The notes beneath the pieces were generated by a model. It made no database searches, was not told the origin of the DNA, and saw only the letters and a program-made list of their open reading frames with translations. 64,000 nucleotides of DNA from NCBI GenBank assembly GCA_041746255.1, contig JBGTHM010000034.1, positions 38,056 to 102,055 on the forward strand. The letters run 5' to 3'. The DNA is from Fibrobacteria bacterium. GTDB lineage: Bacteria > Fibrobacterota > Fibrobacteria > UBA11236. Below are positions 6,320 through 43,205 of this stretch, piece by piece. The translations under genes were made by a program, and so were the position numbers. Within the stretch, counting starts at the first letter, position 1. Each line of letters opens with the position of its first letter.

Positions 6320-7479
6320 AGGGATTGCTGGTGGTGGTGTGGAAGGAAATGCTGCATTTGCGGGGCGACAAAACGGGCCTCCGTCTCATGTTCCTGGTGC
6401 CGGTGGTGCAATTGTTCGTGCTGGGATACGCGCTGACCACCGAAGTAAAGAACACACCCGTAGCCGTGGTGGATTATTGCGCATGTGAACAAAGCCGATC
6501 CCTGGCGCATACCGTGCTTTCCCACCCGCTGTTTCGCTCCCAGGGTTTTGTGGAGTCCGAAAAGCAAATGCGGCGTCTCATGGATAGGGGCGAAGTGCGC
6601 GTGGGCCTTGTCATCCCTCCCGACTTTTCCATGCGCCTGGAAGCTTCGTGGCGAGCGATTAATTCGGGAAAATCGAGGCCTGATAGGGGTGCTCCCGTGC
6701 GGGTGATTATCGACGGGCAGGACGGAAATTCCTCGCAAGTGGCGGGAGGCTATTTGCAGGCCATACTCAGGCAATGGTCCGGACAGCGATTGGAGGAGCA
6801 AATTGCGGGAACGGGACGCAATGTTCGGCAAATGGTTCCGGTGGAGGTGGATGAAGCTTTTCTGTTCAATCCGCTGCTCAAATCCTCCTGGTACATGGTT
6901 CCCGGAATCGCAGTATTGTTGGTGACCATGGTCACCGCGCTGTTGACCGGACTGTCCATCGTTCGGGAAAAAGAAGCCGGCACTTTGGAGCAGTTGATGG
7001 TCACGCCTATCCGTCCCTGGCAGGTAGTATTGGGAAAAACCGGCCCCTATATGCTTATCGGTTTTTTCGAACTTTCGGCGATTCTCCTTCTGGCGGGGCT
7101 TTGGTTCGGAATTCCCATGCGCGGGAGCGTGTTCTTGCTTTTTTTCTTCGCCTTCATCTACATGTTCTCGTCTCTCGGCATCGGCATACTCGTCTCCACC
7201 CTGGCGCGGACCCAGGTACAAGCCCTGTTCATGATCTGGTTTTTTCTGCTCTTCTTCATTCTGTTAAGCGGATTTTTCGTCCCCATTCAAAACCTCCCCG
7301 GATGGGTCCAGAACCTCACTTTGGTCAACCCGGTTCGCTATTTCATGGCGGCCTTGCGCGACATTCTGCTCAAGGGGTCGGATTTTTCGAGCCTCTATGG
7401 TCATGCAACATCCATGTTGCTGCTCGGAGCGGGTTTGTTCGGAGCGGCGTTTTTAACTTTCAAACGTAAAGTGGAATAG
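6316..7479 (+). CDS. ABC-2 type permease (YbhR-like)
   Basis: KEMLHLRGD, FNPLL...YMVPGI, REKEAGTLEQLMVTP, NPVRYF; paralog of the preceding gene. Confidence 0.93.
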   Translation: MKGLLVVVWKEMLHLRGDKTGLRLMFLVPVVQLFVLGYALTTEVKNTPVAVVDYCACEQSRSLAHTVLSHPLFRSQGFVESEKQMRRLMDRGEVRVGLVIPPDFSMRLEASWRAINSGKSRPDRGAPVRVIIDGQDGNSSQVAGGYLQAILRQWSGQRLEEQIAGTGRNVRQMVPVEVDEAFLFNPLLKSSWYMVPGIAVLLVTMVTALLTGLSIVREKEAGTLEQLMVTPIRPWQVVLGKTGPYMLIGFFELSAILLLAGLWFGIPMRGSVFLLFFFAFIYMFSSLGIGILVSTLARTQVQALFMIWFFLLFFILLSGFFVPIQNLPGWVQNLTLVNPVRYFMAALRDILLKGSDFSSLYGHATSMLLLGAGLFGAAFLTFKRKVE

Positions 7480-7510
7480 TAAAATGGTGAGGGAAAAGGC
7501 CGAGTGTGCT

Positions 7511-8656
7511 TCAGAAATTAAAAAGCAGCCTGCCTTCGATAACATCGGCGTAAAAATCCAGAGTATTGAAATACCGGAAGTACTTCAAAGAAAGCGAGCA
7601 ACCGAGGAGAAAATCCAGGGAAGGTCGGGTTTCGGCCATGCCCTTGAACAAATAGGTCAGCCCCAGTCCGGCATTGTTCGAATCGAAATCGCGCAACTTG
7701 TAGTCCCCGGTTAAATAGGGCATGCTATTTTCCGAAGAATAATTTTCCCGCCAGAAATTCGCCGCCCCTTGCCGGTAGAAACGGTATTCGGGGCTGATAA
7801 TCCAGTTGGGGGTCACATATTTGTTACCCCTCAATCCGAAGGTATGCGAATCGATGCTCCAATCGTCCCAGTAATAGCGATAGTGGAGCAGCACGCTTGC
7901 GTCCAAATCGGCGAAAGAATAGGCGTAATCACCCCAGGCGGCATGCCGAAAGCGAATCTTGGGATGGGCTTCCCGCGTTTCCTCGTAAATTGGCATCGCC
8001 GCGCCCGGAGCGGTATTCACACGTAGGTGGCGATAGGGATCGCTGTTGAATCCGTTTTGGCGCATGCCGTCATACCCCAACCGAATCCAACTGACGGGGG
8101 AGAGTAATTGCGTCAAGGCCACTCCCGCCTGATGCACTTCTTTGAACCGGTAGACAAGGTTTCCCACGCGCGGTATCTCTCCCACGGAGTCGAGGCTGTA
8201 TTGTCCTTTGAGGAAAAAGGTGGTGTTTTTCTTGAAAAGCTCCTGGGTGAAAGACCCAATCAAAGAACGCGAGAGATAGTCCGCCTCCTCGCTGTGGTAG
8301 ACGCTGGCGGCTACGCGGGTATCGGATCCCAGGCCCTGTTCCACCCCGAGAATCACCTGCCCCCGGTTTTTACGATAGACTTGACCTTCCTGCCTTTGCG
8401 GGCGTGAGGCTCCGCTTACGCCATCCAGAATGGGAGGAAGCGAGATTTGATCCAGCTCAACGTCCATGAGAACCAGGGTGCTGCGCCAAACCGTTTTGGA
8501 AATGGAAATGGAGGAGGTGAAAACCGAGTTTTGGGAATTATCACCGAAATAATAAGTGGTATAGGAAAGTTCGTCGGCCGCAAGCGGATGCCCTGCAAAA
8601 GCCACGGCGAGGAAAAAGCGAAGCGGAGAAAAAAGTGAGGAAAGGTTTCGAATCAT
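7511..8656 (-). CDS. DUF3570-like outer membrane beta-barrel with DxxSGAS flavinylation motif
   Basis: Start reassigned to ATG 8656, overlapping the upstream stop; signal peptide, LDGVSGAS, SEEADYLS, GFNSDPY, YRYYWDDWSIDSHT, YRFYRQGAANF, terminal Phe. Confidence 0.8.
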   Translation of the reverse strand: MIRNLSSLFSPLRFFLAVAFAGHPLAADELSYTTYYFGDNSQNSVFTSSISISKTVWRSTLVLMDVELDQISLPPILDGVSGASRPQRQEGQVYRKNRGQVILGVEQGLGSDTRVAASVYHSEEADYLSRSLIGSFTQELFKKNTTFFLKGQYSLDSVGEIPRVGNLVYRFKEVHQAGVALTQLLSPVSWIRLGYDGMRQNGFNSDPYRHLRVNTAPGAAMPIYEETREAHPKIRFRHAAWGDYAYSFADLDASVLLHYRYYWDDWSIDSHTFGLRGNKYVTPNWIISPEYRFYRQGAANFWRENYSSENSMPYLTGDYKLRDFDSNNAGLGLTYLFKGMAETRPSLDFLLGCSLSLKYFRYFNTLDFYADVIEGRLLFNF

Positions 8657-8904
8657 TTGGCGCAGCCGCAGCCGCCTCCCACACCCTTGCCGCCCCCGAA
8701 GCTGCCCTCGCGCGTGGAAAAGAATTTGGCTTCGAGGGATTGCTTCGCGATGGAATTGCCCGAATCCATGATGGGATCGGAAAGCTTTTCCCTTTGATAA
8801 GGCTCCACCACGGCGCATCCGGAAAGTTGGATCCATAAAAAGGCCGCCCCGGCGGCGGTGGCGACGGCGGAGAAGCGGCGTGCGAGAATCCGCCACTTAC
8901 TCAA
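8653..8904 (-). CDS. DUF4266-like small lipoprotein
   Basis: Lipobox LSGC, VEPYQREKLSDPIM, C-terminal REGSFGGGKGVGGGCGC; start codon uncertain (TTG 8904 chosen). Confidence 0.8.
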   Translation of the reverse strand: MSKWRILARRFSAVATAAGAAFLWIQLSGCAVVEPYQREKLSDPIMDSGNSIAKQSLEAKFFSTREGSFGGGKGVGGGCGCAK

Positions 8905-9394
8905 GCATGAGTTTTTCAAGCTCCGCCTCCATTTCCTGCAAGGTGTTTTCAGTATAACCGTCGAAGCGTTTCCACAAATTTCCGGATTTATCGATGAGAA
9001 AGGCGGCGGGCATTCCCTCGATGGCATAAGCTTTGGCCGCGATTTGCTTGCCGTCGTAAAGAGGAATCATGGCTTGCGCCTTACCCTTGAGGAAGCCTCT
9101 GGCCTTGCCCTTATCGCCGTCGAGATTGACGGTGACGACGGTGGCCCCAGAGTGGCGCGCGGCCACTTTCTCCAATTCGGGCAGCGACTTGCGGCAGGGA
9201 GCGCACCAGGTCGCCCAGAAGTCGATTAACACCGCGCGGCCCTTGAAATCGTGCGGGCCAAATAAAGAGTCGTTGTATAGATGCGGCAGGTCGAAGGCCG
9301 GGGCTGGTTGAAGTTGGGATGCATGAATGGAAATGGCCGCCGGCAAGAGTAGCAGGCAGGTTAACAACCCCGAAGCGATACCGATAATTTTCAC
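8897..9394 (-). CDS. TlpA/ResA family thiol-disulfide oxidoreductase
   Basis: DFWATWCAPC motif, GMPAAFLID cis-Pro loop, signal peptide; GTG 9394 overlaps the upstream TGA. Confidence 0.92.
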   Translation of the reverse strand: MKIIGIASGLLTCLLLLPAAISIHASQLQPAPAFDLPHLYNDSLFGPHDFKGRAVLIDFWATWCAPCRKSLPELEKVAARHSGATVVTVNLDGDKGKARGFLKGKAQAMIPLYDGKQIAAKAYAIEGMPAAFLIDKSGNLWKRFDGYTENTLQEMEAELEKLMLE

Positions 9395-11616
9395 TGCGCC
9401 GCCATATTCACGCTGTTGGAGAATTGCACGCCCATGTCCAGCCATTCGATTAGAAGCAATAAATCGGCGTTGGCGGGAAGAAAAGGATTGATCACGCCAT
9501 GGCCGTCTTTTTCCCAATGGGTGGAATGATCATGGGAGGTCTTGCGGTAATCCGAAGTTGCGCCATTCAATTGTTTATTGAAGAGCACCCACATCAAGGG
9601 GCTGCGGCGCGCGCCATTTTGGGTGGCGTAAGGAAGGGTCTTGTTATCGGCCAACTTATAGCCACTATCACGGGTGAGACGGTTGTACACGGTGGAGATG
9701 CCTTCCCTTTCATAAAGGGAGTCGGAGCGAACCTCCTGCAAAACCAGGCCTCCGCCGGCGGAAGCGGCGGTTCCGGAGCCATGGCAGCTGATACAGCGCG
9801 CGTCCAATACCGCTTGCAGGGTGTTGGGGCGCGTGGGTTGCTTGAAATCGAAGAAGTCGACGGTGTCAAGCCGAACGGAACCATGGGCCGTTACCGACTG
9901 GGCATTGTGGAAGCCGGAGATATAAGCCTTGATGTTGGCGAGCGACACTTCCGTGGCCATATCTATTCTCCAACCCACGCGATTATCGTCGAGGATGGCG
10001 ATTCTCTCGATATCGCGGTCTCGGTCGCGGGGGCCGTGGCATCCGGTGCATAAGCGTCTTTCGCCGGGCATGACTTGAATCCATTGCAATTGGTTGACCA
10101 ACATCAGGCCGGATTCGTTCAGGGTTTGCAAATGCAGGGCGGTTTTGGCGGGCACTTCGATGGAAAAGGACCCGTCTTCGCGCACGTCGGCATAGCCGAT
10201 AACCCTTTGCTTTTCGAAATTGGTGCGCCCCAGGTTGCCGCCGCGTTTGTTGCGGTCGACGGGCAGGGGAATGGCTTCCATGACGCGCACGTATTTTACT
10301 TCACCCTTGCTGCCGTCGGCGTTTATGAAATCGGGGTTGGGTTTCATGTGGCCGTCATTGTCCATGCGGCTATAGACGTTGGCGTCGAAGAACATGCCGG
10401 TGGTTTTATTTTGCGCTATCGCTTGCGCGACTTCATTACTGTTTTGCGTCAGGGCCGGTAGTCTGCGCGGCGCCACGGGAATGGGGCTATGATCGTTGGT
10501 GGAGGCGTCGTTATAAACCAAAGTGAGATTTTTTCCATCTTTGTCCATGACGTAGAGGCCGTAGTCGACACCACTGGACATATCCCGGCCTACGGCATGG
10601 GGCGACATGGCAACCAGAATCCGCTCCTTGCCGCCATCTTGGATGGGGTGTGGGGTTTTGAAAATCGCATTGGCGGTGTCGCGCGTATTGTTGAAGGGAA
10701 CGTCATTCGGGGTAATGAACACCGGGTCTTCCGTGAAGCGGGATAAATCGATAATGACGATGGCCCCGCCTTCAAACGGGGAGTTGCGCTCCATCAAGGA
10801 GCTGACTATGCCTCCATCTGCAAGTTCACGCGCTTCCAAAAAGGTACGGGATCCCGAGGCCCGGGGGCCATCGGCCCCGTAGGCTACGAATTGCCCCGTG
10901 CCGTCCTGATTGATGGAGAAGAGGGGGATTTTGTTGGGGTTGCCGAGATGGTCCCATCGGCTGAAAAGAATCTTTCCGCTGGAATGCAAAAAGGGATTAT
11001 TGTCGTGGCTTTGATTGGTGGAAATGCGCCGGGGTTCACCCATGGTTCCGTCGGGTTTACGGTCGGCCACATGCAATTGCGGTACTTGCCGTCTTTCGTA
11101 TTCGTCCACGATTTGCGCGCGAGTGGAGGAAAAGACAATACGATCGTCCGTGAGATAGGCGGGGTCGATATCGTCACCTACGGTGGGGTCGGTCAATTGC
11201 ACCAGGTTCCGCGTTTCCAGGTCCATTTCATAAATACTCCAGCGCCTGCTACCCGCTTTGCGCATGCTGAACAATAGCCGTTTACCGTCGAAGGAGATTT
11301 CCGGGTCGGCCGCCGCCCCCCAATCGCGGGTGTTACTCGAACCGCCTCGCGTATAGGCGGCGGTGAGGTTTTCGACCTTGCCGTTGGGAGAAATGGGAGT
11401 AAGCAGACAAATATCGGTTCCGGGATAAAACTCATCGACATTGCTGCGCATGGCATTACTGCGATTGTTGTCGATACTGGTTTCCTTGACGAAAACCAGG
11501 CTGGTGGCTTTATGCGAAGATTTGAGGATTTCATCGGCGGGTTGCAAGCAGGCTGAAAGCAAAGCCGAGGCTAACAATGTCAGAGCCCATGTCGGTAAAG
11601 AAAGCATGTTATGCAT
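9391..11616 (-). CDS. Hydrazine synthase alpha subunit (HzsA)-related di-heme c lipoprotein
   Basis: AGGAGG RBS; lipobox LLSAC; PD40/TolB-like repeats (DPEISFDGKRLLFS, DIDPAYLTDDRIVFSSTR); HZS-alpha middle-domain-like IGYADVREDGSFSIEVPA...LQTLNESG...VMPGERRLCTGCH; second motif CISCH. Confidence 0.8.
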   Translation of the reverse strand: MHNMLSLPTWALTLLASALLSACLQPADEILKSSHKATSLVFVKETSIDNNRSNAMRSNVDEFYPGTDICLLTPISPNGKVENLTAAYTRGGSSNTRDWGAAADPEISFDGKRLLFSMRKAGSRRWSIYEMDLETRNLVQLTDPTVGDDIDPAYLTDDRIVFSSTRAQIVDEYERRQVPQLHVADRKPDGTMGEPRRISTNQSHDNNPFLHSSGKILFSRWDHLGNPNKIPLFSINQDGTGQFVAYGADGPRASGSRTFLEARELADGGIVSSLMERNSPFEGGAIVIIDLSRFTEDPVFITPNDVPFNNTRDTANAIFKTPHPIQDGGKERILVAMSPHAVGRDMSSGVDYGLYVMDKDGKNLTLVYNDASTNDHSPIPVAPRRLPALTQNSNEVAQAIAQNKTTGMFFDANVYSRMDNDGHMKPNPDFINADGSKGEVKYVRVMEAIPLPVDRNKRGGNLGRTNFEKQRVIGYADVREDGSFSIEVPAKTALHLQTLNESGLMLVNQLQWIQVMPGERRLCTGCHGPRDRDRDIERIAILDDNRVGWRIDMATEVSLANIKAYISGFHNAQSVTAHGSVRLDTVDFFDFKQPTRPNTLQAVLDARCISCHGSGTAASAGGGLVLQEVRSDSLYEREGISTVYNRLTRDSGYKLADNKTLPYATQNGARRSPLMWVLFNKQLNGATSDYRKTSHDHSTHWEKDGHGVINPFLPANADLLLLIEWLDMGVQFSNSVNMAAQ

Positions 11617-11632
11617 GGCGGCCTCCTAGTGA

Positions 11633-12274
11633 TTAACGATACATATGCACGCCTATCCGCACGACCAAATTATGCGTCAAGGCAGGGCGGGAGCCGATTT
11701 TCTGGGAATAAATATGATCCTGTAGCGAATAGACCAGAGCCAGTCCGCGATTTTTCGTGAAAAAGGGTAGTGGCATGCGGTTACCGAATCCCGCGACCAG
11801 TCCGACATTGGGAACCGTTCCTTGATAAATACCCACGACGCCCCCGGTAAAATGGGGGATGAGAGATACCGCCCTTCCCTTGGCTTTATACCAGGGACTT
11901 TCGGGAGCGTAACCCACCAGAGCTTCGACGGAAATAAGAAGATTATTTTCGAAAACGGCGGCGCGAAACAGGCTTCGCGAATAGGAGGACTGTACCGTTC
12001 CCGCACCGGCTCCCAACTGGAAGAAATAGTTTGCCTCGGCAATGTAGCGGTCATAGTAAACGGATCCGAAGGGATTGCTTCCGAGTACTTCGGCGGCATA
12101 CAGCCCCACCTGGGCGCCATAAGCGCTGGTGGGAATGCCCGAAGGCTGGGGGGCCGCGTGGCTTTGTGTGAACAAGCCCACAAAAGCGAGGCCCAGAGCC
12201 CAGACGAAGTGCCGGGGGCGAATTGTTTTTTTACAGGACAAAGGATACTCCGAGGTTGGTTTCTTGGAAGACAT
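11633..12274 (-). CDS. Putative small outer membrane beta-barrel protein
   Basis: Hydrophobic signal segment ending QSHA, amphipathic beta strands, C-terminal HNLVVRIGVHMYR; start uncertain (12274 or 12241). Confidence 0.6.
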   Translation of the reverse strand: MSSKKPTSEYPLSCKKTIRPRHFVWALGLAFVGLFTQSHAAPQPSGIPTSAYGAQVGLYAAEVLGSNPFGSVYYDRYIAEANYFFQLGAGAGTVQSSYSRSLFRAAVFENNLLISVEALVGYAPESPWYKAKGRAVSLIPHFTGGVVGIYQGTVPNVGLVAGFGNRMPLPFFTKNRGLALVYSLQDHIYSQKIGSRPALTHNLVVRIGVHMYR

Positions 12275-12743
12275 GCAGGATATGGCTTTGATCGAGCGGA
12301 TTACGATCACGCAGAAAGTATTGCCTGACCTCGAAGCGTACGGCCAGGGTAGGTGAGAGGGAATAACGTAATCCACCGCCATAATTAAGCCCGACGGTGG
12401 AGATGGACTCCGCGCTCACGGCATTGGAAGGAGCCGTGATAAACAAACCTCCGCCTAAAAGTCCGTAGGGAAGAAAAAGGCTGTTTTCCGCCAGATGGAT
12501 TAGGATATTAGCGGTAAGCGGATACAACGTGGCGGTTTGACCGGGAACCATTCCGGCCGCTCCTTCCAGGCTGACGGGGCGGTAACGCATGGAGGCGCGT
12601 AAACTCAAAACCGGACTGCCGCCCATCATTCCGATACTGGGGGAAAGCTCCAACGCTGCTTGAGGATTTTTATCGTCCCGGTCGTCCTCGGCCATTCCCA
12701 AGGTGAAAAGGCCTAATATGAGAATGAGAGGGAAAACGGCCAT
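12231..12743 (-). CDS. Putative 8-stranded outer membrane beta-barrel protein
   Basis: Signal peptide; LPYGLLGGG, GLNYGGGLRY, AVRFEVRQY, ETNLGVSF strands typical of OmpA-like barrels. Confidence 0.72.
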   Translation of the reverse strand: MAVFPLILILGLFTLGMAEDDRDDKNPQAALELSPSIGMMGGSPVLSLRASMRYRPVSLEGAAGMVPGQTATLYPLTANILIHLAENSLFLPYGLLGGGLFITAPSNAVSAESISTVGLNYGGGLRYSLSPTLAVRFEVRQYFLRDRNPLDQSHILHVFQETNLGVSFVL

Positions 12744-12872
12744 GGTATGGATATAATAACACCGGTGTCAACCCCTCGACAGGTAGAGTTTACCGCGAAA
12801 TTCGAGTTCGCTTGACTTGTCTTGACTTGGGCAGCTTTATTTATAAAAGATGAGGCGGAGATTTCAACTTGT

Positions 12873-14114
12873 ATGAACCGTCATAATCCCTCCCCTTATG
12901 CCGCGAATCTGGCTTGGCTCGATAGTCAGCAGCCGGTTTTGGAGGCGTTGACCTTAGCCTGGACCCGGATTCGTTCGTCTTCGTACGACACCCAAGGTTT
13001 GGCGCATTTGGCGGAAGCGGTACGAGACGAATTTTTGGTCCTGAATCCCGACTCCGTAGAGGAAATTTCGTTGTCACCCCATGAAGTCATCGATGCCTCG
13101 GGGTCGCGCGTGCCCAAGCCGCTGGGAAAAGCCTTGCGCTTCCGCAAAAGGAGCGAAGCTCCCGTGCAGGTGTTCCTCTGTATCCATATGGACGTGGTGT
13201 ATGGATCGAGCCTAGGGGAAGTGGTGATTGATCGCATCGGAAAAGACCGCATGCGCGGATCGGGATTGTGCGATGCCAAAGGCGGCATGGCGATTTTACT
13301 CAAGGCGGTGGAAGCTTTGGAGCGCAGCCCCTTCGCGTCGGGGGTGGGATGGGAAATTCTTTTGACCCCCGACGAGGAAATCGGATCGCCGGGATCGCTA
13401 CCTCTTTTACACGAGGCGGCTCGGATATACCATGCGGGTTTGCTTTACGAACCCAGTCTCCCCGACGGTTCACTGGTGGGAAAGCGGAAAGGTTCCGGTA
13501 ATTTTTCCGTGGTAGTGCGCGGAAGGAGCGCCCATGCCGGACGCAACATTCAGGATGGCCGGAACGCCATCATCGCATTGTGCGAGCTATTGCTGCGTCT
13601 GGAAAAGTGCAATGAGCCGGAGGCGGGCATATCCCTCAACGTGGGTCGCGTGGAAGGCGGAGGCCCCGTGAACCGCGTGCCCGATTTGGCTATCGGACGG
13701 TTCAACTTGCGCGTGGAAGAACCGGCGCAACAGGAGGAAGTTTTGGACCGCATCAAGGCCATGGTTTTGGAATCCGGGAAACGGGAGGGCATTACCGTGG
13801 AACTCGACGGGGCTTTTTCTTCACCGCCCAAACCTTTTCAGGACGGCACTCTCGAGCTGGCGCAACAAGTCGTCGCTTGTGGTCTCGATTTGGGATTGGA
13901 ACTTCGCTTCGAAAGCAGCGGAGGGGTTTGCGACGGAAATAAATTGGCCGCGGCGGGGCTCCCGAATATCGATACTCTGGGAGCACGCGGAGGCGCATTG
14001 CACAGTCCCGACGAATATATATTTCTGGATAGCTTGGCGGAACGGGCCAAGCTATCGGCTCTTTTATTGATGAAATGGGGAGCCGGAGAAATTCGCCCGC
14101 CCCAAAAAATGTAA
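12873..14114 (+). CDS. M20/M25/M40 family metallohydrolase (glutamate carboxypeptidase-like), ast-associated
   Basis: HMDVV, DAKGG, DEEIGS, GRSAHAGR, GGVCDGN, LHSPDEY metal-binding motifs. Confidence 0.9.
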   Translation: MNRHNPSPYAANLAWLDSQQPVLEALTLAWTRIRSSSYDTQGLAHLAEAVRDEFLVLNPDSVEEISLSPHEVIDASGSRVPKPLGKALRFRKRSEAPVQVFLCIHMDVVYGSSLGEVVIDRIGKDRMRGSGLCDAKGGMAILLKAVEALERSPFASGVGWEILLTPDEEIGSPGSLPLLHEAARIYHAGLLYEPSLPDGSLVGKRKGSGNFSVVVRGRSAHAGRNIQDGRNAIIALCELLLRLEKCNEPEAGISLNVGRVEGGGPVNRVPDLAIGRFNLRVEEPAQQEEVLDRIKAMVLESGKREGITVELDGAFSSPPKPFQDGTLELAQQVVACGLDLGLELRFESSGGVCDGNKLAAAGLPNIDTLGARGGALHSPDEYIFLDSLAERAKLSALLLMKWGAGEIRPPQKM

Positions 14115-14160
14115 GCGGTAGTAGACCCACTCGTTCGGGTTTAACGGAAGGAAGAAAGTA

Positions 14161-15582
14161 ATGGGTGAATTGCATGCCGCGGCCTTACGGAACGATCCCC
14201 GCGTTGCGGAAGGCAAGCGTCTCTTGCTCGCCGCTTTAGCGGAGCGACAGAGTTTGTTGCAAGGCATCAAGCCGCCTCAGGATGCGTTGAAACGGGATTA
14301 TGCGGAAGCCCTGAAAAGTTTTTCCGATTTACGTGGAGGCGCCACTTTTTATCCCTATCTTGCCAGCGGCTTCGGAAGCGGCCCCTTCGTGGAATTGGGC
14401 GACGGCAGCGTCAAATACGATTTCATCACGGGAATCGGCGTGCATTATTTCGGGCATGGCCATCCCGATTTGGTGGAGGCTTCGTTGGACGCAGCGTTGG
14501 ACAGCACGCTGATGCAGGGAAATTTGCAGCAAAGCGCGCGCAGTCACGAGCTGTTTCGTTTGCTGGTGGATGGGGCCAACCGGCATGGCGCCAAAATGCG
14601 TCATTGCTTTTTGACCAGCAGCGGGGCGATGGCCAATGAAAACGCCTTGAAATTGATCTTCCAAAAACGCCATCCCGCCGTCCGGATTCTTGCTTTCGAA
14701 GGCTGCTTCATGGGGCGCAGCCTGGCACTATCGCAAATCACCGACAAGGCCGCCTATAGGCAAGGTCTGCCCGCCAATTTACAGGTGGATTACCTGCCCT
14801 TTTTCGATGCGAAAGATCCAAAAGGCTCCACTTCGCGCGCCTTGGCGGTGCTGGAGAAGTATCTAAAACGCTACCCCCAAAACCATGCGGCCATGTGCTT
14901 CGAGCTCGTGCAGGGAGAGGGCGGCTATTATCCCGGCCACCGGGATTTTTTCGAGGCCTTGATGCGTCGGCTCAAGCAGGAAGGCATTTCCATCTTCGTC
15001 GATGAAATCCAGACCTTTGGCCGCATGCCAGAGCTTTTCGCCTTTCAACATTTCGGTCTTGACGAATATGTCGATGTCGTAACCCTGGGGAAAATGACAC
15101 AGGCTTGCGCCACTTTGGTGCGCGAAGAATACAAGCCGGGGCCGGGTCTGATAAGCCAAACTTTTACGGCCTCGACCGGGGCTATCGCCGCCGCCTGCGT
15201 CATCGTGAAAAGCCTGATCGAAGAAGGCTACCTCGGAGAGAAGGGAAAGATACAACGGCTTCACCACCGCATGACGGATAAGCTGAAGGATATAGCGAAG
15301 CGGCATCCGGGTTTGGTCGAAGGTCCTTATGGCTTGGGCGCCATGATAGCCTTCACGCCTCTGGGGGGCGACGCCGAAAAGGTCAAACGCTTTCTGATCT
15401 TGTTGTTCGAAAAAGGCGTCATCGCTTTTTCCGCGGGAGCCTCGCCCGCGCGCGCGCGCTTTTTGATGCCGATGGGGGCGGTGGAGGAAAAGCATATCGA
15501 CGAGGTGATGGCCTTAACCGAAGCGGCTTTGCTTGCAATCGCAGAGGAAGACAAGGGCGGTAAAGGCGTGTCGTCATCATGA
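14161..15582 (+). CDS. Class III PLP-dependent aminotransferase, probable succinylornithine transaminase
   Basis: SGAMANENA, FELVQGEGG, DEIQTFGR, TLGK PLP lysine, SQTF; inside the ast operon. Confidence 0.85.
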   Translation: MGELHAAALRNDPRVAEGKRLLLAALAERQSLLQGIKPPQDALKRDYAEALKSFSDLRGGATFYPYLASGFGSGPFVELGDGSVKYDFITGIGVHYFGHGHPDLVEASLDAALDSTLMQGNLQQSARSHELFRLLVDGANRHGAKMRHCFLTSSGAMANENALKLIFQKRHPAVRILAFEGCFMGRSLALSQITDKAAYRQGLPANLQVDYLPFFDAKDPKGSTSRALAVLEKYLKRYPQNHAAMCFELVQGEGGYYPGHRDFFEALMRRLKQEGISIFVDEIQTFGRMPELFAFQHFGLDEYVDVVTLGKMTQACATLVREEYKPGPGLISQTFTASTGAIAAACVIVKSLIEEGYLGEKGKIQRLHHRMTDKLKDIAKRHPGLVEGPYGLGAMIAFTPLGGDAEKVKRFLILLFEKGVIAFSAGASPARARFLMPMGAVEEKHIDEVMALTEAALLAIAEEDKGGKGVSSS

Positions 15583-16637
15583 TCATATTGCGGCCCATTC
15601 GTATCAAGGATCTGGACTCGTTGCTGGACCTGGCCTCCATGACGCGATTCGGATTGACCAGCCTTCCTCCCGACAAGGAGATTCTCAAGCGCCGGGTGCA
15701 AGAGTCGTTGCAAGGGTTTTCCAAGATGGTGGAGAAACCCGGCGGTGAAACCTATCTCTTCGTGCTGGAAGACTTGGATAAGAAAAAGGTGGTGGGCATT
15801 TCAGGGATCGTCTCGAAAGTGGGCGGATTCGAACCGTTTTATGCCTATGGCATCAAAACCGTGGTGCATGAATCCGAAACCTTGAAAATACGCAAGGAAA
15901 TACGCGTACTCAAATTGGTTCGGGAACATAACGGTCCTTGCGAAATCGGCAGTCTCTTTTTGCACCCTGATTATCGCGGGAAAAATTCCTGCGGCCGGTT
16001 GTTGTCGCTGGGCCGGTTTCTCTTCATGGCCGATAAACAGGAATTTTTCGATCCCGTCGTTATCGCCGAAATGCGCGGAGTCATCGACGATAACGGGCGC
16101 TCTCCCTTTTGGGAATGCGTGGGAAGGCATTTCTTCGATATGGATTTTCCCAAGGCCGATTATTTGAGCATGCGGGATAAGCGCTTTATCGCCGAGCTCA
16201 TGCCTGCCTATCCCATATACCTGACCTTGCTTCCTAAAAAGGCCCAGGATGTTATCGACAAAGTGCATGACCATACCCAGCCGGCCTTGAATCTCTTGCG
16301 CAGCGAAGGTTTCGAGTTCAGCGGGATGGTCGATATTTTCGAAGCGGGGCCCATCGTCACCTGCCCTCTGGAAAAAATCCGCACCGTGCGCGAAAGCGAA
16401 ATAATGCCGGTGAATAAAATCGTGACGCAACGAATCGATTCCGATCTCTTTCTTATCTCCAATACGAAGAGCGAATTCCGAGCCTGCACGGCCCCGCTGG
16501 CCATCGTTCCCGGTCTCGGCATTGAAGTGACGCGCGAGACCGCTTCAGCGCTCAAAATCAAAAAAGGCGACGCGGTGCGCATCGCTTCGTTGCGGCCGGG
16601 AGGGCTGGCGCCTTTGGCTAAAAGGAGTACGGCATGA
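15579..16637 (+). CDS. astA: Arginine N-succinyltransferase
   Basis: GLTSLP, YLFVLED, EIGSLFLHPDYR, AEMRG, SPFW, FIAELMP, VDIFEAGP. Confidence 0.95.
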   Translation: MIILRPIRIKDLDSLLDLASMTRFGLTSLPPDKEILKRRVQESLQGFSKMVEKPGGETYLFVLEDLDKKKVVGISGIVSKVGGFEPFYAYGIKTVVHESETLKIRKEIRVLKLVREHNGPCEIGSLFLHPDYRGKNSCGRLLSLGRFLFMADKQEFFDPVVIAEMRGVIDDNGRSPFWECVGRHFFDMDFPKADYLSMRDKRFIAELMPAYPIYLTLLPKKAQDVIDKVHDHTQPALNLLRSEGFEFSGMVDIFEAGPIVTCPLEKIRTVRESEIMPVNKIVTQRIDSDLFLISNTKSEFRACTAPLAIVPGLGIEVTRETASALKIKKGDAVRIASLRPGGLAPLAKRSTA

Positions 16638-18100
16638 CGAAATCCCATTTTCTGGACGGAGTCTGGCGCAACGGCGAAGGTAAAGAATTCTCCTCCAGCG
16701 ATCCGGCCACGGAGGAAATTGTTTGGACCGGGCGCGAAGGCCTTGCGAACGAAATCGATGCTGCGGTAGCGGCCGCTCATCGGGCTTACACTTCCTTTTC
16801 GGAATTGGAATTTAAAACCCGTGCGGACTATACGCGCGCCTATGCCGAGGCTCTGGCTTCCAGAAAGGACGAAATGGCGGATGCCATTTCCCGTGAAACC
16901 GGCAAGCCGCTTTGGGAGGCATTGGAAGAAGTCGCGACCATGCAGGCGAAAGTGCCGGTGTCTATCGAGGCCTACCAGGACCGCACCGGCATACAACGTA
17001 TCGAACTCGGAGAATTCACAGGCGAGAAACGCTACAAACCCCACGGTGTGGTGGCGGTACTCGGACCCTTCAACCTTCCCGGCCATCTGCCTCACAGCCA
17101 TATTGTCCCAGCCTTGCTCGCGGGAAATACCGTGGTATTCAAACCCAGCGAGCAAACGCCGCTGGTTGCGCAAAAAATCATGGAGGTTTGGGAAACCGTG
17201 GGGCTTCCCCCCGGGGTTTTCAATATGGTGCAGGGCGGGCGTAGCACGGGAGAGGCCTTGGCCGCGCATCCGCGCTTGAACGGGCTTTTTTTCACGGGTA
17301 GCCATGCGGGCGGTTTGGCTTTGAACCGTCTTTTTGCGGAGCATCCGGAAAAAATTCTGGCCCTGGAGATGGGAGGCAACAACGCGCTCATCGCATGGGA
17401 GGTTAAGGACATGGCGGCGGGTATTACCGCGCTGCTCCAATCGGCCTTCATCACCTCCGGGCAGCGCTGCGTTTGCGCCCGCAGACTTATCGTTCCCGAG
17501 GGAAAGGTGGGCGACAAATGGCTTGACCTGCTGGTCGCCGGCGCACGCCGCTTGCGCGTGGGCCTGCACACCGATCGCCCCGAGCCTTTCATGGGTCCGC
17601 TGATTTCCGCCGCCGCTGCCGATCGCCTGCTGGAGGCCCGCGACCGCTTGTTGCAAAAAGGCGCGCGCACCCTGCTGGCCATGGAAAGAAGTCCCCGCTG
17701 CCTGGCCTTGCTCTCCCCCGGTATCCTGGATGTCACCTCGGTTCCCGAGCTTCCGGATGGAGAATACTTCGGACCGCTCTTACAAGTTATACGGGCTCCG
17801 GATTTCGCAACCGCCCTCGACCTGGCCAATGCCACCCGCTTCGGGCTGGCGGCGGGTTTGCTGGACGATAGCCGCGAACGCTTCGAGCAATTCTTCCGGA
17901 AAATCCGCGCGGGGGTGGTCAATTGGAACCGCCCGATAACGGGAGCCAGCGGGAAGCTGCCTTTCGGGGGCATAGGGCAAAGCGGCAACCATCGCCCCAG
18001 CGCCTATGCCGCCGCCGATTATTGCGCCTATCCCGTGGCCTCGCTGCAAAGCGAAAGCGTAACGCGTCCGGCGAACCTTCCCCCCGGTCTCGAAGGTTGA
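16634..18100 (+). CDS. astD: Succinylglutamate-semialdehyde dehydrogenase
   Basis: ETGKPLWE, GPFNLPGHL, FKPSEQTP, LALEMGGNN, GQRCVCARR, SGNHRPSAYAAADYCAYPVAS. Confidence 0.96.
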   Translation: MTKSHFLDGVWRNGEGKEFSSSDPATEEIVWTGREGLANEIDAAVAAAHRAYTSFSELEFKTRADYTRAYAEALASRKDEMADAISRETGKPLWEALEEVATMQAKVPVSIEAYQDRTGIQRIELGEFTGEKRYKPHGVVAVLGPFNLPGHLPHSHIVPALLAGNTVVFKPSEQTPLVAQKIMEVWETVGLPPGVFNMVQGGRSTGEALAAHPRLNGLFFTGSHAGGLALNRLFAEHPEKILALEMGGNNALIAWEVKDMAAGITALLQSAFITSGQRCVCARRLIVPEGKVGDKWLDLLVAGARRLRVGLHTDRPEPFMGPLISAAAADRLLEARDRLLQKGARTLLAMERSPRCLALLSPGILDVTSVPELPDGEYFGPLLQVIRAPDFATALDLANATRFGLAAGLLDDSRERFEQFFRKIRAGVVNWNRPITGASGKLPFGGIGQSGNHRPSAYAAADYCAYPVASLQSESVTRPANLPPGLEG

Positions 18101-18140
18101 GGGAAGGGGTGGATTACGCCGGGTCCGGAGGGAAGCAACG

Positions 18141-19520
18141 GTGAAAAGATCGGAACCCACCGCGAATCGGGAAGCCGGGACGCAGGAATACAATTTCGAT
18201 GGATTGATAGGTCCCACCCATAATTATGGTGGACTTTCCCCGGGCAACGTCGCCTCGGAAAAAAGCCGTCGCCGCCCCGCGAATCCCAGGCAGGCGGCGC
18301 TACAGGGGCTGGCCAAGATGCGCCTGGCCCATTCGCTCACCGGGAGGCAGGCGCTGTTGCCGCCACTGGAGCGGCCCGATCTCGCTTTTCTCCGGCGTAG
18401 CGGATTTACCGGAAACGATGCCCGCGTGCTGGAAAAATGCGCGCGCCAAGCTCCGGATTTATTGGCCATCGCCTATAGCGCCTCCAGCATGTGGACAGCC
18501 AACGCGGCCACCGTACGGCCATCCATCGACGGCGCCGATGGAAAACTGCATGTTACCTCTGCCAATCTCAGCGCGCAAACCCACCGCTCGTTGGAACCGG
18601 AAGCGACTTCGCCTCTGTTGGCGCGCCTCTTCTCCGGCATTCCCGGGGCGATACTCCATCCCAACCTCCCCCAGGGAAATCTCTTCGGCGACGAAGGCGC
18701 GGCCAACCATATGCGTCTGGCCCCGGAACATGGCGCGCCCGGCCTCCATGTCTTCGTATATGGCCGCTCCGTCGCGGGTGGGCTCGCGCTTCCCCACCGT
18801 CATCCCGCGCGCCAAACCCTGGAAGCCTCCCAAGCCGTGGCCCGCCTGCATGGATTGGACGGGGGGCGGGCTCTTTTCCTACAGCAAAACCCCAAGGCCA
18901 TCGATGCCGGAGCTTTTCATAACGATGTAATTGCCGTCAATCATTTGGGTTTTCTATTGGTGCATGAAAAAGCCTTCGCCGGAGGCAAGCGCGATATCGA
19001 AATTTTGCAAAAGGCTTATCGCCAGGCGACGGGAAAAACCTTGTCGGTATGCGAAGTTCCGGCCCGGAAAATTTCGCTGGCGACCGCGGTGGAAACTTAT
19101 CTCTTCAACAGCCAATTCCTGGATAGACAAGCGGGAGGCGTATGTTTGTTGGCCGCGCGAGAATGTCGCGCCAACGCAAAGGTGCGCGCCTTTCTGGAAA
19201 ACACCTTGCTACCCGGCGATAATCCGGTTTCGGAAGTGCGGTATGTGGATTTACGCCAAAGCATGCGTAACGGCGGCGGCCCGGCTTGTTTGCGGCTACG
19301 TGTCGCTTTGACCCCAAGCGAGGCAAAAGGAGTACATGCGGGAGTTCTCTTGCACGAAGAACGATTACAGAGGTTGGAAGTACTCGTCAGTCGCCATTAT
19401 CGCGATCGGCTCACTTTTTCCGATCTGGCGGATCCGCGTTTGTTGCTCGAATCCCGGGAATGTCTGGATGAATTAAGCGGCATTCTCGATTTGCCGCAAT
19501 TATATCGATTCCAAGCCTGA
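18141..19520 (+). CDS. astB: N-succinylarginine dihydrolase
   Basis: NFDGLIGPTHNYGGLSPGN, SASSMWTANAAT, GDEGAANH, FHNDVI, QSMRNGGGPACLRLRV. Confidence 0.97.
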   Translation: MKRSEPTANREAGTQEYNFDGLIGPTHNYGGLSPGNVASEKSRRRPANPRQAALQGLAKMRLAHSLTGRQALLPPLERPDLAFLRRSGFTGNDARVLEKCARQAPDLLAIAYSASSMWTANAATVRPSIDGADGKLHVTSANLSAQTHRSLEPEATSPLLARLFSGIPGAILHPNLPQGNLFGDEGAANHMRLAPEHGAPGLHVFVYGRSVAGGLALPHRHPARQTLEASQAVARLHGLDGGRALFLQQNPKAIDAGAFHNDVIAVNHLGFLLVHEKAFAGGKRDIEILQKAYRQATGKTLSVCEVPARKISLATAVETYLFNSQFLDRQAGGVCLLAARECRANAKVRAFLENTLLPGDNPVSEVRYVDLRQSMRNGGGPACLRLRVALTPSEAKGVHAGVLLHEERLQRLEVLVSRHYRDRLTFSDLADPRLLLESRECLDELSGILDLPQLYRFQA

Positions 19521-42605: not shown

Positions 42606-43205
42606 ATGCTGCTGACTCTACTTTTCTGGACCGTTCTGGGAATACTTAGCCTGGTTTTCATTTCCGCCATTGTAGCCACGTTGCGGCGAGGCTCCCAAAA
42701 TGCCCAAAATCAGGGAGCGAACGGAGAAGAAATTGCTCCCATTTACGCCAGTGGGGTCTTCTCCCTGATTCGGAAATCGCCAAGGAACGAGATTCTTACC
42801 CGTGAACCTTCGCTTGCGGAAATCCAGGCGATACTGGCGCTTCCCGAGGCGACCGCCATTGCGAATGGCTCGGCGCAGCAGTATCTCGACGAGTGGCGGA
42901 GGATGGCGAATATTAGTATAAATAACATCGAAAAAGGGGACAGGGAGGGCGTACAAACCTACCGATACCGCGTTCCGGAGAAGTGCCAAGACTGTTGTTC
43001 CATGTTTGCGGGAGATGCTTATGTTACGCGTGAACAGCTCCACAAACATGCCGAACTCATTCCGCCCTTCCATCTGGGCTGCGGTTGCGAGCTATTGGCC
43101 CGTCAGGCGTGGAGCCCGGGTACGGATACCGCGAGTTGGACGCCCATTCTCCCCGATAAGGGCAAATACAGCACACCGGATTGGAGACGCGTTGTCAACC
43201 TTTAG
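42606..43205 (+). CDS. Single-TM hypothetical protein with CxxC...PPxHxxCxC motif
   Basis: GGAGGA RBS, N-terminal TM helix, CQDCC...IPPFHLGCGC. Confidence 0.75.
   Translation: MLLTLLFWTVLGILSLVFISAIVATLRRGSQNAQNQGANGEEIAPIYASGVFSLIRKSPRNEILTREPSLAEIQAILALPEATAIANGSAQQYLDEWRRMANISINNIEKGDREGVQTYRYRVPEKCQDCCSMFAGDAYVTREQLHKHAELIPPFHLGCGCELLARQAWSPGTDTASWTPILPDKGKYSTPDWRRVVNL

Follow-up and report, generated by a model that had tools for sequence, protein, structure and literature searches.

A conserved operon of exported proteins in a Fibrobacteria genome combines an HzsA-like two-haem lipoprotein with thioredoxin, DUF4266 and DUF3570 partners

We analysed a 64,000-nucleotide stretch of DNA from a Fibrobacteria bacterium (assembly GCA_041746255.1, contig JBGTHM010000034.1, positions 38,056 to 102,055; hereafter the window) and in it a set of six genes built around a lipoprotein that resembles the alpha subunit of hydrazine synthase (HzsA). 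The six open reading frames (ORFs) are co-oriented on the minus strand, span positions 12743 to 7511, and overlap or nearly touch their neighbours, as the initial annotation had described. In reading order they encode a small exported outer-membrane beta-barrel (OMP1, for outer-membrane protein; 12231..12743, ATG at 12743, 170 amino acids (aa) with signal peptide; MAVFPLILILGLFTLGMA), a second small exported protein (OMP2; 11633..12241, TTG at 12241 or ATG at 12274, about 173 aa when mature), the HzsA-like lipoprotein (9391..11616, ATG at 11616 with AGGAGG upstream, 741 aa, lipobox LSAC with Cys23), a TlpA/ResA-type periplasmic thioredoxin (8897..9394, GTG at 9394, about 165 aa, active site WCAPC), a DUF4266 lipoprotein (8653..8919, TTG at 8919 or 8904, lipobox LSGC, mature length 54 aa with the end GGGCGCAK) and a DUF3570 outer-membrane barrel (7511..8656, ATG at 8656, 381 aa, signal peptide to Ala27, C-terminal Phe). 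The last three are referred to below as the trio. Judging from the sequences and from structural models, we think it fairly likely that the six genes form one operon for an outer-membrane redox module that joins thiol, flavin and haem chemistry.

The longest ORFs of the six genes overlap heavily. We chose later starts, each of which gives an export signal and a tight layout. With these starts the stop of the HzsA-like gene and the start of TlpA share four nucleotides (GTGA), as do DUF4266 and DUF3570 (ATGA); TlpA and DUF4266 overlap by 8–23 nucleotides depending on the DUF4266 start, OMP1 and OMP2 overlap by 11 nucleotides if OMP2 starts at TTG 12241, and a gap of 16 nucleotides precedes the HzsA-like gene. 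Read from the sequence, each of the six products has a signal-peptide-like or lipobox N-terminus, which agrees with the export signals first reported for all of them. All six belong to the outer membrane, the periplasm or the cell surface, and the earlier term 'trans-envelope' was too wide, because the operon contains no inner-membrane or cytoplasmic part. A scan of positions 7300–13000 returned four promoter-like sites (3.7 expected) and eleven terminator-like sites (8.5 expected), both at chance level. Given these counts, and since the best promoter candidate overlaps the start codon of OMP1, we name no promoter.

Conservation of the gene set

We compared eighteen genome loci, seven from a scan of species-representative genomes and eleven from 201 sampled genomes of the same phylum as the window. 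The seven loci have 52–80 per cent identity and come mostly from metagenome-assembled genomes (MAGs) of Calditrichota, with one from the window's genus. In the phylum sample, full-length orthologues of the HzsA-like protein were found in fifteen other genomes, all of the same order, and in none of the seventy-eight genomes of family f3. One of the fifteen, G194, enters this count only. Operon members at the eighteen loci were called with hidden Markov models (HMMs) built from our own alignments. OMP1 and OMP2 both lie upstream at all eighteen, and where the contig left room downstream DUF4266 was present at fifteen of sixteen loci, DUF3570 at fourteen of fifteen and TlpA at fifteen of seventeen, so the gene order is conserved in other genomes. 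The ABC-transporter, M20 and aminotransferase genes that flank the operon in the window had no match at any of the eighteen.

A metagenome scan with an alignment returned sixty-seven loci at 45–60 per cent identity. Downstream of the haem gene, DUF4266 was present at 45 of the 46 loci where the contig extends for 250 bp or more (at the sole miss, TlpA is followed by the contig end), and DUF3570 at all 32 with at least 1200 bp. Upstream, OMP1 was found at 46 of 46 loci with room and OMP2 at 49 of 51; one of the two OMP2 misses had no room, and the other, L097, is a true exception. TlpA was present at 17 of 46 loci. From the counts at genome and metagenome loci, five members make up the conserved core (OMP1, OMP2, the HzsA-like protein, DUF4266 and DUF3570), and TlpA often joins them. 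The picture of one conserved, fully exported operon combining haem, thiol and flavin parts is upheld, with TlpA as its optional member. Source names in the family are Fibrobacterota, Calditrichota and Bacteroidota MAGs, and a cluster look-up of six orthologues gave MAG names or no name, and no cultured carrier.

Some loci show further features. At the three Calditrichota loci with full flanks, a third small outer-membrane protein gene precedes OMP1 (L014:5611-6207), and DUF3570 is followed by a conserved protein some 810 aa long that carries FlgD_ig and a type IX secretion system (T9SS) C-terminal sorting domain (L014:12555-15017, L016:12716-15199, L018:11973-14396), one of which also has an NHL repeat. 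In the same-genus relative (L013:3482-5827; G152:C112) the haem gene matches to residue 629 and the frame then runs into TlpA (781–787 aa), which is either a frame change in this relative or an assembly error.

The HzsA-like haem lipoprotein

Behind its lipobox, the HzsA-like protein is laid out as a six-bladed TolB-like propeller, an HZS_alpha middle domain and two haem motifs, CTGCH at residues 523–527 and CISCH at 608–612, in keeping with its first description as a propeller/di-haem lipoprotein of 741 aa. It matches HZS_alpha (PF18582) at 75.7 bits (cut-off 26.6, E = 4.3e-21), and phmmer links it to chain 5c2v_A with E = 1.2e-18. An AlphaFold2 (AF2) model had a predicted local distance difference test score (pLDDT) of 89.2 and a predicted template modelling score (pTM) of 0.88. 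Foldseek matched this model to 5c2v_D (E = 1.8e-35, TM 0.67/0.65), and VIA-align superposed it on hydrazine synthase alpha over 590 residues (model range 35–739) with Z 37.2 and a root mean square deviation of 3.0 Å. TolB propellers rank next, at Z of about 27.5, and cover the propeller only. The protein is thus predicted to have the whole-chain fold of hydrazine synthase alpha, with the same order of propeller, middle domain and two-haem C-terminal domain as in PDB 5C2V and both CXXCH motifs aligned at the positions of haems alpha-I and alpha-II.

The initial annotation had called the protein hydrazine-synthase-alpha-like. This stands for the whole fold, but the residues that define hydrazine synthase are missing. 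In hydrazine synthase, Tyr591 is a ligand of haem alpha-I, and His587 and Cys303 hold a zinc ion (PMC12758564); His772 is the distal ligand of the bis-His haem alpha-II. Tyr591 (Tyr564 in chain numbering) aligns with Asp531 of the window protein. Of the 78 orthologues, 77 have D, E, N or S in this column, and none has Tyr. The haem-motif residues C523, C526, H527, C608, C611 and H612, together with H697, are kept in all seventy-eight, and the lipobox C23 in seventy-seven. Beyond C23 and the two CXXCH motifs there is no conserved Cys in these orthologues, so nothing corresponds to Cys303 of the zinc site. At the position of His772 (chain His745) the window protein has Ile709, and the invariant His697 lies twelve residues earlier; it may be the sixth ligand of haem 2. 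The NCBIfam equivalog model for HzsA, NF052339, scored 117.8 bits against a cut-off of 800, and 104–119 bits on three orthologues. As the initial annotation had noted, no beta- or gamma-subunit genes lie beside the HzsA-like gene or elsewhere in the window, and the only CCP_MauG match above cut-off in the genome is an ordinary 406-aa frame on another contig. Because it lacks Tyr591, the zinc Cys, any beta/gamma partner and a score that reaches the NCBIfam cut-off, the HzsA-like protein is not a hydrazine synthase.

Homologues of HzsA outside anammox bacteria have been described before, in clades I–IV defined by co-location with beta-gamma, with key residues missing (Hagglund et al., Genome Biol Evol 2025, PMC12758564). 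The window protein shares with them the loss of Tyr591 and Cys303. Unlike HzsA and these published homologues, it is a lipoprotein, has no beta/gamma neighbour and is tied to a flavin barrel set, and it keeps the second haem site along with the invariant His697. Haem alpha-II of hydrazine synthase has a midpoint near -330 mV (PMC12607021), which would fall within the range of thiol and flavin couples.

The fixed link to the trio appears confined to a narrow family. In a library clustered at 50 per cent we found 3924 relatives of the HzsA-like protein at E up to 0.001, of which only about seven clusters are full-length (residues 11–736). The others are mostly about 900–1000 aa long and have in common only the propeller and middle domain. 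At three loci with 7-kb flanks that carry distant paralogues of about 900 aa (same phylum, 25–27 per cent identity), the trio was present at none, which assigns the link to the two-haem family of 740 aa.

Directly after the lipid-anchor Cys, residues 24–29 (window 11529-11547) follow the pattern x-x-P-[PA]-D-[DQE], with P26 and D28 each present in 77 of 78 orthologues. Such a stretch is unusual in a lipoprotein tether; it may be a sorting or docking signal.

The DUF3570 barrel, its partners and related modules

As with HZS_alpha, the DUF3570 and DUF4266 assignments of the initial annotation held, each family model scoring above its cut-off. The window barrel matches DUF3570 (PF12094) at 146.6 bits (cut-off 25), and its AF2 model (pLDDT 93.1, pTM 0.86) is a closed barrel in which we counted sixteen membrane strands. 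Foldseek returned generic barrels only (OccK, porins, BcsC; TM up to 0.55). The flavinylation motif first noted in the barrel is a single DGVSGAS at residues 78–84 (Ser84), in the long loop L2 between strands 3 and 4. The long loops 74–93, 203–233 and 297–323 all lie on the same side of the model; with the usual periplasmic termini of a barrel, this topology would put the flavin loop on the outer side, or folded into the lumen from there. By motif and by analogy, we propose that the window protein carries a covalent flavin mononucleotide (FMN) on Ser84.

The DUF3570 proteins linked to the haem gene form, by sequence, a sharp subfamily of their own. E-values fall from 1e-50 to 3e-14 at its edge, and the subfamily HMM gives the window copy 504.9 bits and the genome's two other copies 150.1 and 115.1 bits. 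The motif [DT][AG]x[ST]GA[ST]RP is kept in 74 of 77 members. Four of nine distant DUF3570 members (P0232, P0236, P0238, P0240) have two flavin sites; the linked subfamily has one.

The small lipoprotein matches DUF4266 (PF14086) at 54.2 bits (cut-off 27), and its mature form is 54 aa long in all fourteen aligned orthologues. Invariant in these are C1, S34, T35, E37, G48, G49, C50, G51, C52 and K54, which gives an S-T-x-E core and a G-G-C-G-C-x-K end, at the place of the GGGCGC tail noticed at the outset. No solved relative of DUF4266 or DUF3570 was found by sequence. Three complex predictions for the pair gave ipSAE values of 0.85, 0.84 and 0.82, whereas none of three controls scored above 0.00. 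In calibration, 116 of 157 solved complexes attained the mark that they pass, as did 2 of 215 mismatched pairs, counts that hold only roughly because our own alignments were used as input. Since neither chain has a solved relative, the pass is not the recall of a known complex.

The three runs agree in at least 96 per cent of contacts, with a partner pLDDT of at least 71. Confident contacts on DUF3570 fall on every second residue of nearly all strands, that is on the lumen face, and nearly every residue of DUF4266 touches the barrel, including 46–52 and 54. The best-defined pairs place DUF4266 residues 29–40 against the outer ends of strands 11–16 and loops L6–L8, and five of the nine invariant DUF3570 residues (R98, S122, E124, D126, D156) lie in the predicted interface. 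The prediction supports binding, with the 54-aa lipoprotein sitting as a plug inside the sixteen-strand barrel; this plug-in-barrel model is new here. The initial annotation had looked to interaction between the operon's products, and for these two it is now predicted.

The two small outer-membrane proteins had both been read as beta-barrels. For OMP1 this stands, if marginally: it matches OMP_b-brl (PF13505) at 29.7 bits, above the gathering score of 28.7, and TIGR04565 at 31 bits, where that model asks for 60. OMP2 resembles a barrel only weakly. It has no Pfam match and scores 19.4 bits against TIGR04565 (cut-off 60), and one of sixteen orthologues gives a weak OMP_b-brl_2 match (E = 0.0081). 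Fifteen of the seventeen orthologues listed end in an aromatic C-terminus (YF, YY or YW), while the window copy and L013 end in YR. In the ESM Atlas, OMP2 fell with unnamed clusters and with one cluster (score 0.95) in which half the members carry OMP_b-brl, which we take as a lead only. OMP2 is probably a small barrel of a family outside Pfam. The two proteins are not shown to be paralogues, with no BLASTP match between them and an hhalign probability of 0.4%.

The thioredoxin with its WCAPC site, first labelled TlpA, matches Redoxin (PF08534, 62.9 bits), AhpC-TSA and Thioredoxin. Against the NCBIfam equivalogs it scores 68.7 bits for ResA (cut-off 170) and 65.2 bits for TlpA (cut-off 230). 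As both lie under cut-off, the TlpA/ResA assignment is one of sequence family only.

Clusters of ApbE, DUF3570, a thioredoxin-like protein and DUF4266 have been published as 'DsbD systems' (Meheust et al. eLife 2021, PMC8238504); DsbD is part of 227 such clusters and absent from 316. The initial annotation had described the trio as recurrent and without an assigned function. It is partly characterised: the DUF3570 protein of Chlorobium luteolum has been shown to be flavinylated by its ApbE at two [S/T]GA[S/T] sites, and the CXC end of DUF4266 has been noted with its function left open (PMC8238504). The trio has also been reported next to some JDVT-CTERM proteins (Haft 2023, bioRxiv 10.1101/2023.06.07.544157). 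The window operon shares with the 'DsbD systems' an exported set of DUF3570 with [S/T]GA[S/T], DUF4266 with CXC and a thioredoxin-fold protein. In contrast to them it lacks ApbE and DsbD, its DUF3570 has one flavin motif rather than two, its thioredoxin matches Redoxin, AhpC-TSA and Thioredoxin_8 rather than PF13899, and an HzsA-like two-haem lipoprotein and two small outer-membrane proteins are fixed members while TlpA is optional. The text of PMC8238504 makes no mention of hydrazine, PD40 or beta-barrel and uses 'outer membrane' once, for siderophore transporters; its small supplements contain no HZS_alpha, PF18582 or hydrazine, the large cluster table lying outside this search. In our literature search we found no paper linking an HzsA-like haem protein with DUF3570/DUF4266. 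The TlpA/DUF4266/DUF3570 part is therefore already published; what is new is that it is joined, as a fixed set, to an HzsA-like lipoprotein with two haems and to two small outer-membrane proteins. The absence of ApbE and DsbD in cis and the single flavin site also mark a new version of the operon.

No ApbE or DsbD homologue is encoded among the genes of the window, and we looked for them in the genome as a whole (4.59 Mb, 130 contigs, rated 100% complete). It has two ApbE genes, on contigs C95 and C5, three DsbD_TM genes, on C110, C95 and C5, and cytochrome c biogenesis genes of the CcsA and ResB type. The apbE and cytochrome c maturation genes that the initial annotation had proposed looking for are thus present elsewhere, and the genome can supply the parts missing from the operon: ApbE, DsbD_TM, and CcsA/ResB for haem attachment. 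The window's HZS_alpha gene is the only one in the genome. There are three DUF3570 genes, each with a DUF4266 gene nearby.

One of the two other copies, on C95 (G000:C95:12589-18271; L010:6590-12271), consists of DUF4266 (ending GGGCGC), a DUF3570 with two flavin motifs (VDVVTGAS and LDAVSGAS), a TlpA-like protein (WCTVC) and CcdA/DsbD_TM. Beyond DsbD_TM lie a 329-aa ORF that partly overlaps its frame, a CarboxypepD_reg protein, ApbE, NusG_II and Hpre_diP_synt_I. This module is of the canonical published type. The other (C100:168498-171347; L011:8496-11392) has DUF4266 (ending GGGCGCTQ), a lipoprotein of about 450 aa and a one-motif DUF3570 with the His-rich run HAGHNHGDHGGHD just ahead of the flavin motif. 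The 450-aa lipoprotein belongs to no Pfam family and has a His-rich stretch directly after its lipobox Cys. The C100 module suggests that barrel-plus-plug pairs serve different lipoprotein partners.

Within the window's order, ApbE occurs in 23 of 25 genomes with DUF3570 and in 3 of 14 without, though these relatives are not independent. Genomes of genus g4 have three to eight DUF3570 matches each, some of them two pieces of one gene, and in the small-genome genus g2 only two of twelve genomes have a match. DUF3570 systems are expanded in one lineage of this order.

A possible redox module and its alternatives

In the redox module that we favour, an ApbE encoded elsewhere would attach FMN to Ser84 of loop L2 before the barrel is inserted, a timing made necessary by the position of the loop, since an outer flavin loop would be beyond the reach of periplasmic ApbE once the barrel has folded. 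DUF4266 would plug the barrel lumen, so that its Cys-Gly-Cys tail and the flavin loop share one conserved polar chamber. TlpA, where present, would connect the Cys-Gly-Cys pair with the thiol pool of the periplasm, and DsbD or CcdA would come from genes elsewhere. The HzsA-like lipoprotein, with two c-type haems and a propeller-capped active site, would form the module's catalytic or terminal part. Dithiol, flavin and haem would exchange electrons, and the flavin would convert two-electron thiol chemistry to one-electron haem steps. Flavins hold this place between a dithiol and a haem in flavocytochrome c sulfide dehydrogenase and in the Mia40-Erv1-cytochrome c relay. In this scheme we infer the electron path, the contact between haem protein and barrel, the membrane side, and the roles of OMP1 and OMP2.

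Two known systems may work in a comparable way. In MtrCAB of Shewanella, a redox carrier is threaded in an outer-membrane barrel and a redox lipoprotein is the outer partner. No sequence or family relation to the window proteins is known; here the predicted barrel has sixteen strands, and the carrier would be a thiol lipoprotein with a covalent flavin instead of a decahaem protein. In LptD/LptE a small lipoprotein sits within the lumen of an outer-membrane barrel and the pair serves lipopolysaccharide transport. The likeness is again one of plug and barrel without a known sequence relation, and the proposed role here is redox.

A bolder version is that the DUF3570 barrel, its flavin and the DUF4266 plug form a new kind of electron conduit across the outer membrane, made of thiol and flavin in place of multihaem cytochromes and leading to a surface HzsA-like enzyme, fed by the DsbD/TlpA pool, that reduces or detoxifies an extracellular oxidant. 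We put this forward tentatively and regard it as doubtful. Under it, the genome's other two pairs, in different neighbourhoods, would make barrel-plus-plug a general socket for surface redox enzymes.

Several observations weigh against a redox module of this kind. Of 46 metagenome loci, 29 have no TlpA. Only four of sixty-seven metagenome loci have ApbE within 8 kb, on the strand opposite to the operon, which itself has no DsbD, so that flavin and electron supply must rest on genes elsewhere. At L058 (G173:C155) the haem gene and both small outer-membrane protein genes are present with no trio in the 2.6 kb downstream, the best DUF3570 match of that genome lying on another contig, and at L097 neither OMP1 nor OMP2 is found in the 4.1 kb upstream of the haem gene. 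In the complex prediction the flavin loop 74–93 (pLDDT 66–75) is not among the confident DUF4266 contacts, and standard topology would place it outside, out of reach of periplasmic TlpA as well as ApbE after folding.

Of the other explanations, the one that survives best is that the set serves maturation and sorting. TlpA would keep the CXXCH cysteines of the apo-cytochrome reduced, the barrels and the small lipoprotein would insert or export the HzsA-like protein, and the latter would work alone. ResA and CcmG do keep such cysteines reduced for haem attachment, and the best equivalog scores of TlpA are against the ResA and TlpA models. Three barrel-type genes surround the haem gene, a lipoprotein within a barrel is also the LptD/LptE design, and the lipobox in 77 of 78 orthologues is followed by the conserved C-x-x-P-[PA]-D, a possible sorting signal. 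We nevertheless consider this explanation unlikely. It leaves the invariant Cys-Gly-Cys of DUF4266 without a role as far as pure sorting goes, and it does not fit the absence of TlpA from most metagenome loci or the two DUF4266-DUF3570 pairs without a cytochrome in the same genome, on C95 (with CcdA and ApbE) and C100. The flavin motif is kept in nearly all linked DUF3570 proteins, and a relative is known to be flavinylated (PMC8238504).

Electrons might also run the other way. The operon would then encode an extracytoplasmic thiol oxidase that makes disulfides on TlpA or DUF4266 and passes electrons through flavin and haem to an acceptor outside. In the mitochondrial relay, electrons go from Mia40 (CPC) through Erv1 (flavin) to cytochrome c, and the CXC end, flavin site and c-type cytochrome of the operon repeat these cofactor types in that order. 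The operon also has no inner-membrane supplier of reductant. TlpA-type proteins are usually reductive, however, and the canonical copy on C95 adjoins a CcdA/DsbD_TM gene. DsbD, a supplier of reductant, is moreover often part of published DUF3570 clusters (PMC8238504, in the counts given above), and we judge the oxidase rather improbable.

A third possibility is an enzyme of nitrogen compounds like the hydrazine synthase alpha subunit, acting on hydroxylamine, NO or a hydrazine-type substrate at haem 1, with the flavin barrel in place of beta and gamma. The whole-chain fold, scoring well above the TolB propellers, and the placement of both haem motifs at the alpha-I and alpha-II positions are what would be expected of such an enzyme. 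Against it stand the Tyr591 column, without Tyr in any of the seventy-eight orthologues, the missing Cys303 counterpart, the NF052339 score far under its cut-off, and the lack of beta or gamma genes in a window whose genome offers only the ordinary 406-aa CCP. Other non-anammox homologues have led to the same negative conclusion (PMC12758564), and we give this possibility a slim chance.

That common descent alone keeps the haem gene beside the trio, without a functional link, seems to us close to negligible: all linked loci do come from one sequence family (43–80 per cent identity) and the order is broken at L058 and L097, but it is kept across at least two phyla while flanks differ, DUF4266 and DUF3570 follow at 45 of 46 and 32 of 32 metagenome loci, start and stop codons overlap, and the linked DUF3570 proteins are a separate subfamily with one flavin site.

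The favoured reading of a thiol-flavin-haem module would give a testable partner to two groups of proteins at once: DUF3570 systems, which are flavinylated and have no known function or acceptor, and the non-anammox HzsA relatives, which have no known function or electron source. The fixed operon offers a concrete chain from dithiol to flavin to haem for rebuilding in vitro, and the predicted DUF4266 plug, with the flavin loop placed outside, strengthens the case. If the chain crosses the outer membrane, it would be a new, cytochrome-poor route for electrons to the cell surface. The operon's carriers belong to common uncultured phyla of sediment, soil and hot springs.

The remainder of the window encodes an ABC-2 exporter set, the arginine succinyltransferase pathway, flagellar genes and kinases. 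At 12822-19520, divergent from the operon, lie genes for an M20 peptidase, a class-III aminotransferase, AstA, an aldehyde dehydrogenase and AstB, a complete-looking cluster for the arginine succinyltransferase pathway. Further along, at 43006-45675, the window encodes an 889-aa protein with Reg_prop (two-component-regulator propeller) repeats and a PorV-like type IX secretion barrel domain.

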